34,803 bases of DNA from a phage: NCBI GenBank assembly GCA_021149145.1, contig GCA_021149145.1_4322.1, one strand, 5' to 3'. The notes beneath the pieces were generated by a model. That model searched no databases. It was not told the origin of the DNA and saw nothing but the letters and a program-made list of their open reading frames with translations. Made by a program: the position numbers and the translations under genes. Position 1 is the stretch's first letter; each line of letters begins with the position of its first letter. Shown piece after piece: positions 7,301 to 33,449 of this stretch.

Positions 7301-7375
7301 TTTTTACTCCTCTCGTTTGCGTGAAGTAACTATAAGCCACCCTTGGCGGCGCGTCTTTAGCAAAACGTGCTATTT
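7301..7375 (-). promoter_or_regulatory. promoter-leader cassette copy
   Basis: Minus strand reads AATAGCACGTTTTGCTAAAGACG, 17 nt, TATAGT, then TACTTCACGCAAACGAGAGGAG and the ATG. The TAG inside the box is the TerL stop codon. Confidence 0.6.
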
Positions 7376-9056: not shown

Positions 9057-9581
9057 TTACAGTTTGCTAATCACAGACTCCAGGGCTTCCTTCATCGTTT
9101 CGACGTCGTTAGCAGAAGAGTTATTGCTTATAGTGATCTCCTGCGGTTTGTCGATTCCAAGCTCCTTGGAAATCATGCCAGGGTTAACAATGCCAGATGC
9201 TGCAAGCTGGTATTTCTGCTCGCGAATCACGGAATCAATGAATGCAATCACCTCATCATAACCAGCCGACTTCCTCCATTTCTCGATGGCGCCATGGGTG
9301 ACACCGCAGTAAAGGCAGAATCCGGTTAGCGTGAAGACTCTTGGTTTGTGCACCAGGCTCTCTTTTACCACACCCTGGAAGCTGGCTGTCTCGATTGCAT
9401 TGATTGCCTGGTCCTCAGCCCATGAGAAGTATTTCACGGCGAATTCAAATAGCTGTTCGGGTGTCATGCTTCTGTTTTTGGCTAGCGTTGTAATGTCTGA
9501 GTACTTTTTATTGTACATGGCTTTAAAGTTGCCAGAGCGGACCTTTTCTTGCGCCTGACTGGTGAAGTTTTCGTCTTTCAT
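9057..9581 (-). CDS. terS: terminase small subunit
   Basis: 174 aa immediately upstream of TerL, with an HTH-like segment (FTLTGFCLYCGVTHGAIEKW). AGGAGG lies upstream of the ATG. Confidence 0.6.
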   Translation of the reverse strand: MKDENFTSQAQEKVRSGNFKAMYNKKYSDITTLAKNRSMTPEQLFEFAVKYFSWAEDQAINAIETASFQGVVKESLVHKPRVFTLTGFCLYCGVTHGAIEKWRKSAGYDEVIAFIDSVIREQKYQLAASGIVNPGMISKELGIDKPQEITISNNSSANDVETMKEALESVISKL

Positions 9582-11124: not shown

Positions 11125-11200
11125 TTTCTAACCTCTCGCTGTTTGATATATAAATTATATGGCATACATGCCTTTGGTGTTTAGCTATTCGTGCTGTTTA
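11125..11200 (-). promoter_or_regulatory. promoter-leader cassette copy
   Basis: Minus strand reads AACAGCACGAATAGCTAAACAC, 17 nt, TATAAT, then TTATATATCAAACAGCGAGAGG and the ATG. Confidence 0.6.
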
Positions 11201-12446: not shown

Positions 12447-12544
12447 GTCGATAATTTTAATTTTCGTCTCTATACTCCATCTCGTTGTTGGTGTGGTAAT
12501 TATGCCATCCTTGGCGTCATATCGTTAGGCAAAAAGTGCCATTT
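12447..12544 (-). promoter_or_regulatory. promoter-leader cassette copy (box variant)
   Basis: Minus strand reads AATGGCACTTTTTGCCTAACGATATGACGCCAAGGATGG, CATAAT, then TACCACACCAACAACGAGATGGAG. Confidence 0.5.
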
Positions 12545-12643: not shown

Positions 12644-13165
12644 CTATTTAGCCTCCTTAATCATTTCTTGGTATGCGTTAATCATTGATACTGCACCCTT
12701 AAGTTCATCACCTTCAAGACCAGCGACGCTTGGTGATAGTTTCAACAATCGAGCCTTGAACCTTTCAATGGTAGCCGCCTCCTTCTCTTGCTCTGCTTTG
12801 CTTCTTGAGCCGGATTTTACAGCGCCAGGAACCAGGCTAAGTGATGCGCAGTATGTCTCACTCTCGCCATCAAAGTCGGTAAAACTAAGTGAGAACCTTG
12901 AGCGCACGTCAGCCGCCTTAATCTCAGGCATTCGGCTTACGGTGTTTGAAACGTATGACGCTTTTAGTTTTGGCATGTGGTATTCACCACCAGGTAGAAC
13001 CTCCTGACCACTTAGCGATACGAACGTCTCACGACTCATGCCGAAGTATTGACGAGCAATCATGGTCACAGGGACTGTGCACACTTTGTCTTCTGACTTG
13101 AGCGCCTGACTCGCCATGTATCGAATGATTTCACCCAAACTTACTGCTTCTTTATGTTCTGACAT
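12644..13165 (-). CDS. hypothetical protein, first gene of the leftward early operon (possible DNA-binding protein)
   Basis: 173 aa with CAGGAG upstream. An HTH-like stretch (VTMIARQYFGMSRETFVSLSG) is a weak, eye-only call. Confidence 0.5.
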   Translation of the reverse strand: MSEHKEAVSLGEIIRYMASQALKSEDKVCTVPVTMIARQYFGMSRETFVSLSGQEVLPGGEYHMPKLKASYVSNTVSRMPEIKAADVRSRFSLSFTDFDGESETYCASLSLVPGAVKSGSRSKAEQEKEAATIERFKARLLKLSPSVAGLEGDELKGAVSMINAYQEMIKEAK

Positions 13166-13210
13166 ATTCGTTACTCCTGATTGGTTGCCCTTCGTTAAGA
13201 TGAAACCATG

Positions 13211-13530
13211 GTATCATGAATATACGCGTTATCAAGTGTTATGTTGTGTTTATATCTGCATTGGTTACGCTTTTTGACCTCTCAGCCCAGCTATAGCTGG
13301 TGTAATTACCCTGTGTAAGATTTTACGCGGATTCGCCGGGGGTATGCATATGTATCTATATAGATAAAATTAGTAGTTTTCATAGAAAAACTATCGACCC
13401 ATCCATACGACCAATCTACACCATATACATACATATATACAATAATAATAATAATATAGTAAAAGGTTGATATATATAGATATTATTATGTAACCATTGC
13501 GTAATCTAGCGTGGTAGGCGTATATGATTC
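13211..13530. repeat. AT-rich switch-region module, copy A
   Basis: Collinear with 32981-33327. Shared blocks are TATACGCGT, CATTGG..TTACG, AGCTATAGCT, (AAT)5 at 13441-13455 and a 29-bp identical core at 13458-13486. Iterons TGCGTA, AGCGTG and GGCGTA sit at 13498, 13508 and 13518. Confidence 0.8.
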
Positions 13531-13650
13531 TTCGGAAGCGCACCTCATATACACACCATAACTTCGATAACGTGTATATCCAAATTGGCTCAGCAAGAAT
13601 CAAAATCAACTTGTATGGTAGTTCATCCACCATTCATTCACCCCACATCA

Positions 13651-13750
13651 ATCATTGCAAATCCCGCAACAATCAAAAACATCATTGCATTCGATGCAAT
13701 ATTGTTATATGTGCAATAGTAAGATTAATCATTGCAATATCTGCAACAAT
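13651..13750 (+). promoter_or_regulatory. array of three ATCATTGCAA-type operator-like repeats
   Basis: The repeats are ATCATTGCAAATCCCGCAACAATC (13651), ATCATTGCATTCGATGCAATATTG (13681, containing the palindrome ATTGCAT-TCG-ATGCAAT) and ATCATTGCAATATCTGCAACAAT (13728). An extra TGCAATAGT lies at 13712. Confidence 0.55.
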
Positions 13751-13764
13751 AAATAAATCCAACT

Positions 13765-13837
13765 AATAGCACTTTTTGCTAAAGACATTTAGGTATTGCG
13801 GAGTTATGGTTCACTCATCAACAACGAGGAGAGAGAT
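13765..13837 (+). promoter_or_regulatory. promoter-leader cassette copy (rightward early operon)
   Basis: Reads AATAGCACTTTTTGCTAAAGACA, 17 nt, TATGGT, then TCACTCATCAACAACGAGGAGAGAG and the ATG. Confidence 0.6.
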
Positions 13838-14023
13838 ATGAAACTTAAAGACGAAGCATTTGAGCAATTAAAGCAGGAATGTGCGCTGATTGGATTGAAC
13901 AGTGACTATACTGATATGGTTTTACGCGGACGCATCAATATCGACCTTGCTAAGCAATTCCAGTCAGATGATGAATATATGTGCTGCGATGGCCTCGGCT
14001 GCGACGAATGTTTACCATGGTAA
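13838..14023 (+). CDS. hypothetical early protein (Cys-rich C-terminus)
   Basis: The ATG at 13838 follows GAGGAGAGAG. The 61-aa protein ends YMCCDGLGCDECLPW. The track start at 13796 lies inside the leader. Confidence 0.5.
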   Translation: MKLKDEAFEQLKQECALIGLNSDYTDMVLRGRINIDLAKQFQSDDEYMCCDGLGCDECLPW

Positions 14024-14034
14024 GGAGCCGAATA

Positions 14035-14226
14035 ATGAAAGTTAAGTGCTTAAATAATCTTAATGATGGAACCTGGGAATTCAGTAGTTGAAAGCATTAC
14101 AGTTATGATGAAATTTATGGTTACGTAGTTGGTGATAACTTCAAGCCAGTTTACTGCTACATTGAAAATGGCCTTGTTATTGCCGCTGTTAAGCGTCGAT
14201 TGATTTTTGAAATTTTAGAGGATTAA
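14035..14226 (+). pseudogene. small ORF interrupted by an in-frame TGA at 14089-14091
   Basis: The ATG follows AAGGAG. Translation is MKVKCLNNLNDGTWEFSS-TGA-KHYSYDEIYGYVVGDNFKPVYCYIENGLVIAAVKRRLIFEILED, in a single frame. The distal part has no start codon. The gene ends 1 nt before the next gene. Confidence 0.45.
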
Positions 14227-14431: not shown

Positions 14432-14595
14432 TGCTTTTACCATCTGAGATAAACTATTTCGATCTGGAAATTATTAGTGCTTACAGCGGAAAGGGTTGGC
14501 CTTGCGGGGGCTGGTTTAACGAGGACCTGCTTGAGTCTCACGAGATTATGTTGAAGGCAATTGAGAAGGCCAGAAGAAATAGCACTAATTGCTAA
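14431..14595 (+). CDS. 54-aa hypothetical protein (below the ORF-track cutoff)
   Basis: Translation is MLLPSEINYFDLEIISAYSGKGWPCGGWFNEDLLESHEIMLKAIEKARRNSTNC. The last codons and the stop are the palindromic box. Confidence 0.45.
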   Translation: MLLPSEINYFDLEIISAYSGKGWPCGGWFNEDLLESHEIMLKAIEKARRNSTNC

Positions 14596-14654
14596 AACTC
14601 ACCGCCACGGATGGCGTATATTTACTCCATCGAAACGAAAGAGAGCAAGAGATC
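14578..14654 (+). promoter_or_regulatory. promoter-leader cassette copy
   Basis: Reads AATAGCACTAATTGCTAAAACT, 17 nt (containing CGCCACGGATGGCG), TATATT, then TACTCCATCGAAACGAAAGAGAGCAAGAG and the ATG. Confidence 0.6.
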
Positions 14655-15431: not shown

Positions 15432-17015
15432 ATGTTTGATTTCAACGAAGATAAACTATCTGTTGAGCAGGTTATGGCAATCGCTGCCAATGACAACCTA
15501 CCACCGCTTCGCGTGGCTATTAATGCCAATGGCTATCGACAGTCTCAATCGTTCTGGAAAGCACCTGTCGAGATTGATACAGGTAATGATAAGTATCCAG
15601 TAATCTCACTCGGTAATGATATTGATGTTGTTGGTAAGCTATCGGCTAATATCGCTCGCTCGGTTCAGTTCCCTGAGTCGTCAGCTTACATGCACTTTCT
15701 TGGTTGTGTTTCTGCTGCAATGCTTGGGCGTTTTACTGTCGAGTATCATGGAACCCAACAGCCAACATCTTTGTACGTGGTAACAAGTCAGCCGCCTTCA
15801 ACTGGTAAATCAGCCATTAACTCGCTATCAATTGCGCCGATGATTGCTGAGACTGCGCGGTTGAATGAAGTACGTAAACGTGATCGAAAAAAGATTATGG
15901 CTAAACTGTCCGCTCTGGCTAAAGAGATGAAGCAGGAAAAATCACCTTCTGAAATGGCTTCACTTTTTGAGGAGAAGGAGGATTTAGAGGAGAAGCTCGA
16001 GAAGCTATGCGATATAGTATTCCCTGTCTCCGATACTACTCCGGAAGGTCTTGCGCGAATCAACAATCGCCAGGGTAGTTTTGCGGTAATCTCTGATGAG
16101 GCTACTAGCGTCAACTCACTGTTAGGCATGACTTACGGTGATGGCTCGAAGAAAACGAACAGCGAGCTCGTGCTGAAAGCATGGGATGCAGGTAATGTGT
16201 CAATTGCCCGTGCGAACGCAGAAAATAACATGAGCTTTGTGGCTATGGGATGCATCTCCGTAATTGCTCAGGATGAAACAATCAATGCCATTATGAATGC
16301 TGGTGCGCGTGGTATTGGTGTATCTGAGCGTTTCCTTCTGGTGCGTGAAAAATCATTTCTTGGCGACCGTGTATTTGTTGATGAAAATGGTGATTCAACC
16401 TATGAGGCTATTGATGGCGGCCTGAAAGCAGACTATTTCCGTCTTGTTCATGAGATTATGAATGAAGTTGAAGTGAAACTTACTGTAAGCGCGTCATCAA
16501 TGCGTTACCTTAACCGCGCTCGTCAAGAGATGGAGCCTCATCTTGGTGATGGTGGCAAGTATTCTCACACAATGTTGCGCGGTGCTCTTGGTAAGTTTGA
16601 TAAGCAAGCAATCCGCATCGCTTCTGTTCTGCACGTAATTCGTAACTGGTTCTCACCAGCCGGATCCAGCCCTCAAAAGTCAAGAGAGATTGAACTGGAT
16701 ACAATGCAGGAAGCGATTATGATTTTCAACGAACTAAGCAAGACTTATTTATCATCCGCTAGTGCTGCTGGTCATGCTGGTGACAATGCCGAGATGAACA
16801 AGCTGGTTGATATCCTGATTAAGCAGGGCAAGAATGGTAAAGGTGTTGTTGGTGTTCGCTCGTTGTATGAGGCTGCACGCAAGGTTAAACCTTTTGAAGG
16901 TCAGGCTGGAATTATGACTCGCATTAAGGACCACTTGATTCCTATGCTTGATGAGAAAAACTACACATGCCTGATTGGTGATAAAATTTACATTAATCCA
17001 CGATTGCTGGGGTAA
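15432..17015 (+). CDS. DUF3987/YfjI-like P-loop ATPase, putative replication protein
   Basis: 527 aa with Walker A SQPPSTGKSA and a Walker-B-like AVISDEA. It sits in the replication/early operon. Confidence 0.5.
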   Translation: MFDFNEDKLSVEQVMAIAANDNLPPLRVAINANGYRQSQSFWKAPVEIDTGNDKYPVISLGNDIDVVGKLSANIARSVQFPESSAYMHFLGCVSAAMLGRFTVEYHGTQQPTSLYVVTSQPPSTGKSAINSLSIAPMIAETARLNEVRKRDRKKIMAKLSALAKEMKQEKSPSEMASLFEEKEDLEEKLEKLCDIVFPVSDTTPEGLARINNRQGSFAVISDEATSVNSLLGMTYGDGSKKTNSELVLKAWDAGNVSIARANAENNMSFVAMGCISVIAQDETINAIMNAGARGIGVSERFLLVREKSFLGDRVFVDENGDSTYEAIDGGLKADYFRLVHEIMNEVEVKLTVSASSMRYLNRARQEMEPHLGDGGKYSHTMLRGALGKFDKQAIRIASVLHVIRNWFSPAGSSPQKSREIELDTMQEAIMIFNELSKTYLSSASAAGHAGDNAEMNKLVDILIKQGKNGKGVVGVRSLYEAARKVKPFEGQAGIMTRIKDHLIPMLDEKNYTCLIGDKIYINPRLLG

Positions 17016-18750: not shown

Positions 18751-18827
18751 TTTCGAACCCTCTGTTGTTTTCGATGTTGTGATTATGCCGCATCTCTACG
18801 GCGATTGTTTAGCAATTCGTGCTATTG
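18751..18827 (-). promoter_or_regulatory. promoter-leader cassette copy
   Basis: Minus strand reads AATAGCACGAATTGCTAAACAA..., CATAAT, then CACAACATCGAAAACAACAGAGGG and the ATG. Confidence 0.6.
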
Positions 18828-25958: not shown

Positions 25959-26044
25959 TTTAAATATCCTGATAGTTCTTTAGTTCGTTGCATTGATGTA
26001 TAATAACAGCCATAGAACCCATTGTTTAACAAAAAGTGCTATTG
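25959..26044 (-). promoter_or_regulatory. promoter-leader cassette copy (helicase operon) in a divergent region
   Basis: Minus strand reads AATAGCACTTTTTGTTAAACAA, 16 nt, TATTAT, then ACATCAATGCAACGAAC... and the ATG. The box ends 10 nt before the ATG of the divergent HTH gene. Confidence 0.55.
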
Positions 26045-26054
26045 AGGTAATGAG

Positions 26055-26528
26055 ATGTGTAAAATTGACAAGCGAACTATTAACGGCAATAACGGGACCG
26101 TCCGCACGCAAGACAAGAAGCAACGCAAGCGACCTTCAGGCTACTACGTATTGAAAGATGAAGTAAAGGCTGGTCTACGCGCGCGTCTGGAAATGATTCT
26201 TGATTTCTACGGCACGAAAGCCAATATCGCCAAGCAGTTAAATGTATCTCACCAGACTGTAGAGCAATGGTTTAATCGCGGGATGATTTCGGCTCGAGGG
26301 GCTCAGAGAGCGCATAATGCGTACAAGCGAAATAAGGAAGGGTTCCGAGCTACATTCTGCCGACCAGACCTGCAATTCGACGGTAACGGAAAGCCGCTAA
26401 CACTTCGATGCAAGAAACGCCATATGCTTCGCGTAGTTACCGAGGCAGAACTAGCAATAAAACCACCCTGTCGACCGTGGCGCAAGAATAAGATTGCTAA
26501 CGAAGCAGCACGAAAAGCTAAAGGGTAA
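26055..26528 (+). CDS. HTH DNA-binding protein (Cro/YdaS-like), basic
   Basis: Contains GTKANIAKQLNVSHQTVEQWFNRGMIS. The N- and C-terminal regions are Arg/Lys-rich. Confidence 0.6.
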   Translation: MCKIDKRTINGNNGTVRTQDKKQRKRPSGYYVLKDEVKAGLRARLEMILDFYGTKANIAKQLNVSHQTVEQWFNRGMISARGAQRAHNAYKRNKEGFRATFCRPDLQFDGNGKPLTLRCKKRHMLRVVTEAELAIKPPCRPWRKNKIANEAARKAKG

Positions 26529-31668: not shown

Positions 31669-31744
31669 TCCCCATCTCTCTTTCGTTTCGATGGGGTAAT
31701 GATACCCCACCTGTTAATTTTGTCTTTAGCAATTAGTGCTATTT
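31669..31744 (-). promoter_or_regulatory. promoter-leader cassette copy (best consensus match)
   Basis: Minus strand reads AATAGCACTAATTGCTAAAGACA, 17 nt, TATCAT, then TACCCCATCGAAACGAAAGAGAGATGGGGA and the ATG. The TAG in the box is the exonuclease stop. Confidence 0.65.
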
Positions 31745-32908: not shown

Positions 32909-32980
32909 TTCTCTATCTCTCTATTGTTGCGTGCTTTCGATTAGTTAATGATGCCGTACGCACAACGCATAGTCCAATTG

Positions 32981-33327
32981 GTATCACCTATTAATTAATC
33001 AAGTATACGCGTATAATTTTGTAACTACGTGTAGACATTGGCATGAGTTACGTTTTTAGCCACTTAAGCCAAGCTATAGCTCAATGTAAATAGTGAGTAT
33101 ACCGTGTATACCGATTTTAGCGGAGGGTGCATAGGTATAGGTGCTGCGCAATACTGTATAAAATCACATGGTATAAAAATTATAAGCGGAACACTCAAGA
33201 ACAGTAGTTACATGATATACAAGATATACATATATAATAATAATAATAAGAGTAAAAGGTTGATATATATAGATATTATAATGTAACTATGGCGTAAACT
33301 GGCGTAACTGGGCGTATACGATTTCCA
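32981..33327. repeat. AT-rich switch-region module, copy B
   Basis: Collinear with 13211-13530. It has the palindrome TATACGCGTATA (33004-33015), AGCTATAGCT (33072-33081), (AAT)4 at 33236-33247 and a 29-bp identical core at 33251-33279. GGCGTA iterons sit at 33291, 33301 and 33311. Confidence 0.8.
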
Positions 33328-33373
33328 GCGGATGCATATGGTATACATGGAGTTACATTGGTTACGCGTAAAC

Positions 33374-33449
33374 AATAGCACGAATAGCTAAAACTAATAC
33401 GCAAAACCCTGTATAGTTGGTCACACAAAAAACGAGAGAGGATTTCAAA
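33374..33449 (+). promoter_or_regulatory. promoter-leader cassette copy
   Basis: Reads AATAGCACGAATAGCTAAAACT, 16 nt, TATAGT, then TGGTCACACAAAAAACGAGAGAGG and the ATG. Confidence 0.6.

Follow-up and report, generated by a model that had tools for sequence, protein, structure and literature searches.

The 34,803-nucleotide stretch of DNA analyzed here (contig GCA_021149145.1_4322.1 of GenBank assembly GCA_021149145.1; hereafter, the window) comes from a phage that sequence matches identify as a virulent T1/Rtp-like siphovirus, a coliphage of the Drexlerviridae. Our subject is an array of short palindromic repeats at 13651–13750, which sits in a 672-bp non-coding gap (13166–13837) with divergent gene blocks on either side. 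The left block, on the minus strand, comprises a DUF7174 gene (12644–13165), small early genes, the small terminase gene (9057–9581), the large terminase gene, and head genes. The right block, on the plus strand, holds small open reading frames (ORFs) from 13838 and a DUF3987 helicase gene (15432–17015). A primase is encoded in the window as well as this helicase, and no polymerase. No helix-turn-helix (HTH) domain was detected by Pfam or PHROGs in the genes flanking the array (DUF7174, phrog_9053, and neighboring small ORFs). Across the 1 kb around the array, the best matches were Escherichia phages ES and AN_ECEAS (94.6% identity), followed by Rtp, IME542, JulesPiccard, and more than 100 others at ~70–80% identity.

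Direct reading confirmed the three units described in a first-pass annotation of the window, which begin at 13651 (ATCATTGCAAATCCCGCAACAATC), 13681 (ATCATTGCATTCGATGCAATATTG), and 13728 (ATCATTGCAATATCTGCAACAAT), together with an additional TGCAAT at 13712. A repeat search returned the same three copies, with spacings of 30 and 47, and a 33-nt repeat (13647–13679 and 13724–13756). The 9-mer ATCATTGCA has exactly three copies in the 34.8-kb window, at 13651, 13681, and 13728, all within 86 bp; by our own arithmetic, 2 × 34.8 kb should contain ~0.27 exact copies of any given 9-mer. Each unit holds a 15-bp palindrome of the form TTGCA-N5-TGCAA. In the first unit (U1, 13651–13675), the palindrome TTGCAAATCCCGCAA (13655–13669) matches at 9 of 10 half-site positions and is flanked by ATCA and CAATCA. 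The middle unit (U2, 13681–13704) contains a perfect palindrome, as had been claimed (TTGCATTCGATGCAA, 13685–13699, 10/10), and this is the counterpart of the palindrome that opens the T1 record. A second perfect palindrome lies in the best conserved unit (U3, 13728–13751; TTGCAATATCTGCAA, 13732–13746, 10/10). The TGCAAT half-site at 13712 proved to be the right half of a fourth palindrome (U2b, 13702–13716; TTGTTATATGTGCAA), which is degenerate here (8/10) and reaches 9/10 in most relatives (TTGCT...TGCAA). The palindrome centers are 30, 17, and 30 bp apart, making U1–U2 and U2b–U3 two tandem copies of a 47-bp module.

Within the window, which leaves ~13 kb of the phage genome outside it, perfect palindromes are confined to the array. 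Palindromes with at most one mismatch number 10 in the window against 2.9 expected, and 0 of 100 shuffles reached 10. The complete genome of JulesPiccard has its sole perfect palindrome in its array, with one-mismatch copies scattered elsewhere. An 80-aa ORF (13524–13766) overlaps the array; no reading frame is open across the array in 19 relatives, and we therefore consider this ORF spurious. There was no Rfam match at E ≤ 1 in 12900–14100, and no copy of the array in 5,426 Escherichia coli genomes, where satellites or prophages borrowing a packaging-initiation (pac) signal were sought. The array of the source phage contains no GATC site and no IHF site, the region's sole IHF-consensus match being in the AT block at 13460. 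In the literature searched, we found no paper describing the array or the T1 pac sequence.

Conservation in relatives had been set beforehand as a check on the repeats, and the array passed it. Nine relatives were aligned first, then 19 distinct sequences from Braunvirinae, Rogunavirinae, and Nouzillyvirus; the 19 were fetched by the pattern of the downstream promoter box, which biases the box, and not the array, towards conservation. Mean pairwise identity across the 19 was 82.5% in the array, compared with 44% in the promoter spacer and 62–66% just left of the array, rising to 90% in U3 and 87% in the AT spacer of the promoter-proximal module. The repeats are thus a real, selected, family-level cis element. 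Nearly invariant half-sites are U1-right (xGCAAC, kept in 19/19), U2-left (TTGCA, in 18/19), and both halves of U2b and U3. U1-left and U2-right drift, and the spacers inside the palindromes are variable. Some stretches between sites, such as CAATCAAAAACATCA, are conserved as well as the half-sites. As read from the alignments, this pattern would fit a multi-protein complex better than a row of independent operators.

We also surveyed 46 loci around helicase homologs against the complete genomes of T1, TLS, and JulesPiccard. A module of two palindromes with ~30 bp between centers is present in four groups: the Rtp-like group (with sites −113, −83, −66, and −36 relative to the promoter box), one metagenomic group (two sites, −109 and −78), a group of viral contigs whose helicase is ~65% identical (−152 and −123, reading GTTGCA-N5-TGAAAC), and T1 (about −133 and −103). 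The distance of this older module from the promoter varies across the four lineages, and its distance from an AT-rich block on the left is steady at ~210–233 bp. By this comparison, the distal module is old but not universal. The position of U2b–U3 is filled elsewhere by lineage-specific repeats (48745–48800 in T1; 49770–49800 in TLS, as two tandem palindromes). T1 and many metagenomic relatives have ATTCC(A) twice plus GGAAT(A) twice at this promoter-proximal position, L041 has GGAATAAT three to four times, and the lineages with such repeats also include L044, L048, L057, L064, L070, and L075. Clusters of GATC occupy the position in T1 and TLS, both of which encode a Dam methylase.

The gap itself has a partial paralog in the window. 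A second switch region (region B, 32909–33416) is paralogous to 13226–13580 on the array side (region A). In the alignment of the two, a 64-nt core is 92% identical, and both copies share the same IHF-consensus match (TATCAACCTTTTA, minus strand, 13460–13472 and 33253–33265) and the same GCGTA repeats. These lie with an AT-rich (ATA)n block at 13440–13525, duplicated in region B at 33234–33297. The array has no equivalent in region B, as had been noted before, since region B runs directly into its own box promoter. Region A has an extra insert of ~180 bp (13583–13764) with a degenerate box/−10 remnant, a G-free tract, and the array, which therefore lies in the sole stretch of region A not shared with region B.

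Several smaller features of the two regions deserve mention. At 13588–13619, CTCAGCAAGAATCAAAATCAACTTGTATGGT aligns with the region B box promoter (ATAGCACGAATAGCTAAAAC...TATAGT), its spacer shrunk to a few nucleotides; from the alignment, this resembles what is left of an ancestral box promoter that insertion of the array-bearing segment displaced. Its conservation within the Rtp-like group is good, and the end of the SU57 record lies inside it. Directly left of the array, a G-free, C/A-rich tract (13622–13656) carries repeated (C/A)ATCA pentamers on the top strand. This tract is the sole feature of the interval common to all lineages, including those without palindromes (TLS L012/L013, L041, and L054–L056), and in TLS ~70 G-free nucleotides span the assigned pac position. 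The tract could be part of a packaging signal or, if transcribed rightward, a Rho-utilization-like tract. The segments 13226–13580 and 33009–33375 each carry the palindrome CAGCTATAGCT. Regions A and B each have three GCGTA(A) direct repeats ~10–11 bp apart, and the equivalent region of T1 has GGCGTAATTTGGCGTAA. Given the P4-alpha-like primase and the DUF3987 helicase, the pair recalls P4 ori/crr by analogy and may mark one or more replication origins.

The array was correctly placed by the first-pass annotation directly upstream of the rightward promoter, and the gap of 15 nt given there between its end and the promoter box was essentially right, the distance from 13750 to 13765 being 14 nt. 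The box (AATAGCACTTTTTGCTAAAGA, 13765–13785, plus strand) is a family-wide 21-nt repeat. A −10-like TATGGT (13804–13809, plus strand) begins 19 nt after the 20-mer box and is followed by a conserved leader and the start codon at 13838; the position of this hexamer is conserved in relatives as TATAGT, TATAAT, and similar. Measured from the −10, the array lies 52–165 nt upstream, clear of every core promoter element, with palindromes centered near −77, −107, −124, and −154 relative to an inferred start site at ~13816. The proximal module, U2b–U3, stands at a fixed distance from the box.

The box has been reported for TLS as a 21-nt repeat (aaATAGCACnnnTTGnTAAAA) whose function was listed as an open question (PMC11447400). 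It matches the marbox consensus of the host activators MarA, SoxS, and Rob, given as AYnGCACnnWnnRYYAAAY (PMC3709825) or in a shorter form as gcannwwntgnnaaa (PMC12052159). The window holds about a dozen copies of the box, each oriented with transcription; besides 13765 these include 14579–14598 and 33375–33394 on the plus strand and 7354–7373, 11178–11197, 12523–12542, 18806–18825, 26023–26042, and 31723–31742 on the minus strand. The 15-mer form of the marbox has seven perfect matches in the window (0.70 expected), and the 20-mer form has 10 at ≥13/15 positions (0.55 expected). Nine of the 10 strong 20-mer matches are box promoters with a −10-like hexamer 17–19 nt downstream. The boxes are forward-oriented, overlap the −35 position, and are centered near −41 relative to inferred start sites, which corresponds to class II geometry; the micF site, also of class II, has this position too and reads CACT-7X-AAA. 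Judged from these matches, most promoters of T1-like phages would seem to depend on host Rob/MarA/SoxS or on a phage mimic, and a phage-encoded activator could equally use the box. We found no paper linking marboxes to T1-like phages in the literature searched. The array units were also considered as marboxes and rejected: U3 is one mismatch from the 15-mer, yet fits only 10/15 of the 20-mer. Most box promoters additionally have a short G+C-rich inverted repeat in the spacer between box and −10, its 3′ arm abutting or overlapping the −10 (14602–14618 on the plus strand; 7333–7352, 11158–11175, 12505–12520, and 31700–31720 on the minus strand). Examples are GCCA-AGGG-TGGC, CGCCA-CGGA-TGGCG, GGCAT-GT-ATGCC, and TGGGGTA-TCA-TTACCCCA. 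The 13765 promoter has no such repeat.

T1 is a pac-type headful packager, and its record annotates a 2.8-kb terminal repeat from position 1. Positions 1–17 of T1 are the perfect palindrome GTTGCATGGTGTGCAAC, with a second site at 32–46; the complete T1 genome has no other perfect copy and four scattered one-mismatch copies. The records of Rtp, Rogue1, and IMM-001 open at the homologous spot (window 13701–13709), between the two modules; that of ESCO41 opens flush with the right edge of the U3 palindrome (13746), and that of CEB_EC3a at about 13583. Some of these starts probably copy the T1 convention; those of SU57 and TLS do not. SU57 was opened at a PhageTerm end coinciding with an abrupt change in read depth (PMC7718038), which maps to ~13601 in the window. 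The TLS pac site was located by restriction mapping (PMC11447400), and the mapped interval is homologous to the spot of the array. All recorded termini mapped into the window (T1-type starts, ESCO41, CEB_EC3a, and SU57) fall inside the insert 13583–13764. The array thus sits at the place to which the first packaging cut, or the fixed end of the genome, maps in relatives, an indirect placement that comes through those relatives.

Collectively, these positions lead us to propose, tentatively and with somewhat less than even confidence, that the array is the sequence-specific recognition element of the pac site, at which headful packaging starts. Uniqueness is required of a pac signal; only one segment here is unique, and within it the array is by far the best conserved and most structured part, which is why we favor this reading. 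The older module is consistent with it, as it is steady relative to the AT-rich block and not phase-locked to the promoter. The small terminase (TerS) would assemble on the four TTGCA-N5-TGCAA sites in the two 47-bp modules, and the large terminase would first cut inside the ~180-bp insert or beside it. Packaging would then run leftward in the window for a few headfuls, passing 13165 on the way to terS and the structural genes. Because the spacing between the proximal module and the rightward promoter just downstream of it is fixed, protein bound to this module would probably also dampen the promoter late in infection. We infer the terminase as the binder, the position of the cut in the source phage, and the effect on transcription.

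The candidate reader of the array, the small terminase (9057–9581, minus strand), belongs to the P22 gp3 family (phrog_606; PF16677; PDB 3p9a, E = 5e-13). In TerS, identity between T1 and the Rtp-like group is 57–62% over the N-terminal 85 residues and 45–52% over the rest of the protein. TLS, which lacks the palindromes, is 47% identical to the window in the N-terminal part and 51% in the rest. At most, this suggests a weak signal of co-variation between TerS and the palindromes, in a comparison that left out two key lineages. None of 20 neighboring phage proteins, small early proteins among them, matches the presence and absence of the palindromes, and the helicase C-terminal domain, also considered as a binder, was rejected as it does not co-vary with them. 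With no accessory protein tracking the array, the binder is therefore either a universal protein whose specificity shifts or a factor of the host.

Repeated elements around the first cut make up the pac site of phage P1 and the pacL-pacC-pacR arrangement of SPP1. As in these, the array spreads several short repeated motifs over ~100 bp, at the site of the first headful cut or around it, has no second copy in the genome, and lies in a region with promoters. Unlike these, its motif is a 15-bp palindrome and not a hexamer or A-tract box, it has no GATC (T1 and TLS have GATC clusters just past theirs), and its binder and cut are putative. In P22, pac is a single asymmetric ~22-bp sequence inside gene 3 (terS). 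The small terminase here is a true homolog of P22 gp3.

A number of observations weigh against packaging as the function of the array. In contrast to P22, the candidate signal is multi-site, intergenic, and ~4 kb upstream of terS. The palindromes are absent from the TLS-like phages and from L041, L044/75, L048, L054–56, and L070 despite homologous TerS proteins, and these lineages carry other repeats there (two copies of AGACCAATCGGTCT in TLS, ATTCC/GGAAT sets, and G-free AATCA runs). In one palindrome-less group, TerS is more similar to that of the window in the N-terminal part (51%) than in the rest (41%). The one coverage-based terminus, that of SU57, falls 50 bp outside the array, left of U1, and position 1 of T1, with the records that imitate it, may be a convention set at a conspicuous palindrome and not a mapped cut. 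Dyad-symmetric 15-bp sites with a variable spacer are a classic signature of dimeric regulators. Finally, the proximal module is both fixed to the promoter and the best conserved part of the array, which suggests a link to transcription.

In the strongest alternative, the array is an operator: cooperative binding of a dimeric phage regulator to the four palindromes would modulate the rightward promoter from upstream. We regard this as possible but doubtful. The first-pass annotation had proposed a tripartite operator resembling OR1-3. Its dyad-symmetric sites, now two perfect palindromes and two imperfect ones of 15 bp whose half-sites are conserved and whose spacers vary, do suit a dimeric protein, and the likeness to lambda OR1–OR3/OL1–OL3 extends to the clustering of three or four such sites (15–17 bp) in a divergent promoter region. 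The lambda operators, however, overlap the −35 and −10 of PR and PRM, are 23–24 bp apart, and lie between cI and cro, whereas this array is upstream of its promoter, has spacings of 30, 17, and 30 bp, and has no HTH or other regulator gene adjacent. The palindromes end 14 nt upstream of the box and clear both −35 and −10; an occlusion mechanism of the OR1-3 type therefore does not fit. A regulator would more likely act by interfering with, or helping, the alpha-subunit C-terminal domain of RNA polymerase and a box-bound activator than by core occlusion.

The obvious candidate for such a regulator is a 157-aa protein (26055–26528, plus strand) with a Cro/CI-like HTH at residues 42–80, the only recognizable HTH in the window; a small early protein that went unrecognized would be the alternative. 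It is conserved across the family (ST23 in T1, gp57 in TLS) and has no known target. Its recognition helix varies between lineages, reading S/T-x-Q in every lineage with TTGCA sites, NLK in TLS, and SNS in L041. Yet S/T-x-Q also occurs in the palindrome-less lineages L044/75 and L055/56, and phages whose arrays are near-identical differ in the residue preceding Q (P, R, or H). The gene is 12 kb away and has no TTGCA palindrome upstream of it. An operator agrees with the proximal module being fixed to the promoter box and best conserved (U3 and its AT spacer), and with the presence, in lineages without TTGCA sites, of other palindromes or repeats at the same promoter-proximal position, where T1 also has its ATTCC/GGAAT sets. 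It does not agree with the varying promoter distance of the distal module across lineages, and it leaves the clustering of recorded genome ends unexplained. Given that T1-like packaging starts here, packaging is at least as good a reading as an operator. The two readings could also hold together, given the phase-locking of the proximal module to the promoter.

A host protein might instead be the binder. The pairs TGCAAC-N13-ATTGCA formed by the best conserved half-sites (U1-right/U2-left and U2b-right/U3-left) resemble the CRP-independent optimum for the E. coli cytidine repressor CytR, which would tie the operon to the host nucleoside pool, though we consider this very unlikely. The CytR motif is described as TGCAA/TTGCA pentamers, as the palindrome TTGCAA, or as AYGTGCAAC-N10-13-GTTRCATT (PMC3454398). 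By our own count, the two pairs, with their 13-nt gap between octamers, match at 13–14 of 17 positions, and ATGTGCAAT-N13-ATTGCAAT (13709–13738) fits the third form at 14/17. The pentamers, an octamer like GTTGCATT, and an inverted pair with a gap inside the range derived by systematic evolution of ligands by exponential enrichment are all features of CytR operators. The half-sites in question (U1-right, U2-left, U2b-right, and U3-left) are kept in 14–18 of the 19 relatives while their palindrome partners U1-left and U2-right drift, and T1 keeps the same 15-nt gap between pentamers. Natural CytR operators, however, act with flanking CRP sites (PMC3454398), and 13328–13900 has no match to the CRP site TGTGA-N6-TCACA with ≤3 mismatches. 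This is, moreover, a virulent phage and not a nucleoside-catabolism promoter. The motif is low in information, the CytR consensus itself being weak; sequences between the half-sites are equally conserved, and the motif is missing from many family members.

Replication-origin iterons, at which an initiator would bind the palindromes and the AT-rich block on the left would melt, are a further, highly improbable reading. Four repeated dyad-symmetric sites in a long conserved non-coding region, an (ATA)n block and IHF-consensus match nearby, and the encoded primase and DUF3987 helicase, with no polymerase, would suit an origin, and the lambda origin likewise has four imperfectly palindromic sites repeated in one direction, which bind O protein. 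Unlike the lambda origin, the array is not inside an initiator gene, no O-like initiator is encoded, and the AT-rich block is both distant (~170–200 bp) and duplicated without the array in region B. A search of the region found no DnaA boxes. The helicase, in its variable C-terminal part, does not follow the palindromes, TLS being closer to the window than T1 is, and the GCGTA(A) direct repeats common to A, B, and T1 are a better iteron candidate.

It is scarcely probable that CRP-independent CytR operators upstream of a class II marbox promoter wire the early operon to two host regulators, an arrangement that, if true, would couple activation by stress regulators to repression that lifts as degraded host nucleic acids raise nucleosides.

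The interest of a packaging signal here lies in the phages themselves, since T1-like phages are common laboratory contaminants, therapy candidates, and generalized transducers. In the literature searched, we found no definition of the sequence that starts their DNA packaging: the TLS pac was assigned by resemblance to P22 (PMC11447400), and in SU57 the pac site is stated as not identified (PMC7718038). A defined 100-bp candidate would aid consistent annotation of genome ends and the engineering of packaging or transduction vectors, and would permit tests of the way in which a small terminase of the P22 type recognizes a multi-site signal. Should the array be an operator instead, it would be the first candidate operator from a family of phages about whose gene regulation next to nothing is known.

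T1 can reportedly also start packaging on lambda DNA, between genes P and Q (Drexler, 1984). The lambda genome has no good TTGCA-N5-TGCAA site. Its densest TTGCA/TGCAA cluster (41612–41711, in ninC) lies within the P–Q interval and holds AAGCAACAACCA, which may be compared with AAGCAACAATCA of T1; we considered this cluster as support for a pac signal and set it aside as too weak and unverified.

At the left end of the gap, 420 bp from the array, there is a sigma-70-type promoter (13208–13235, minus strand; TTGATA-16-TACCAT with TG) for the DUF7174 gene (12644–13165), which is kept in relatives. A 21-bp element, ATACGCGTTATCAAGTGTTAT (13222–13242), and its inverted copy, ATAACTTCGATAACGTGTAT (13558–13578), lie 332 nt apart and bracket the AT-rich center of the region. 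Both copies are conserved in relatives, and the left copy overlaps the −35 of the leftward promoter.

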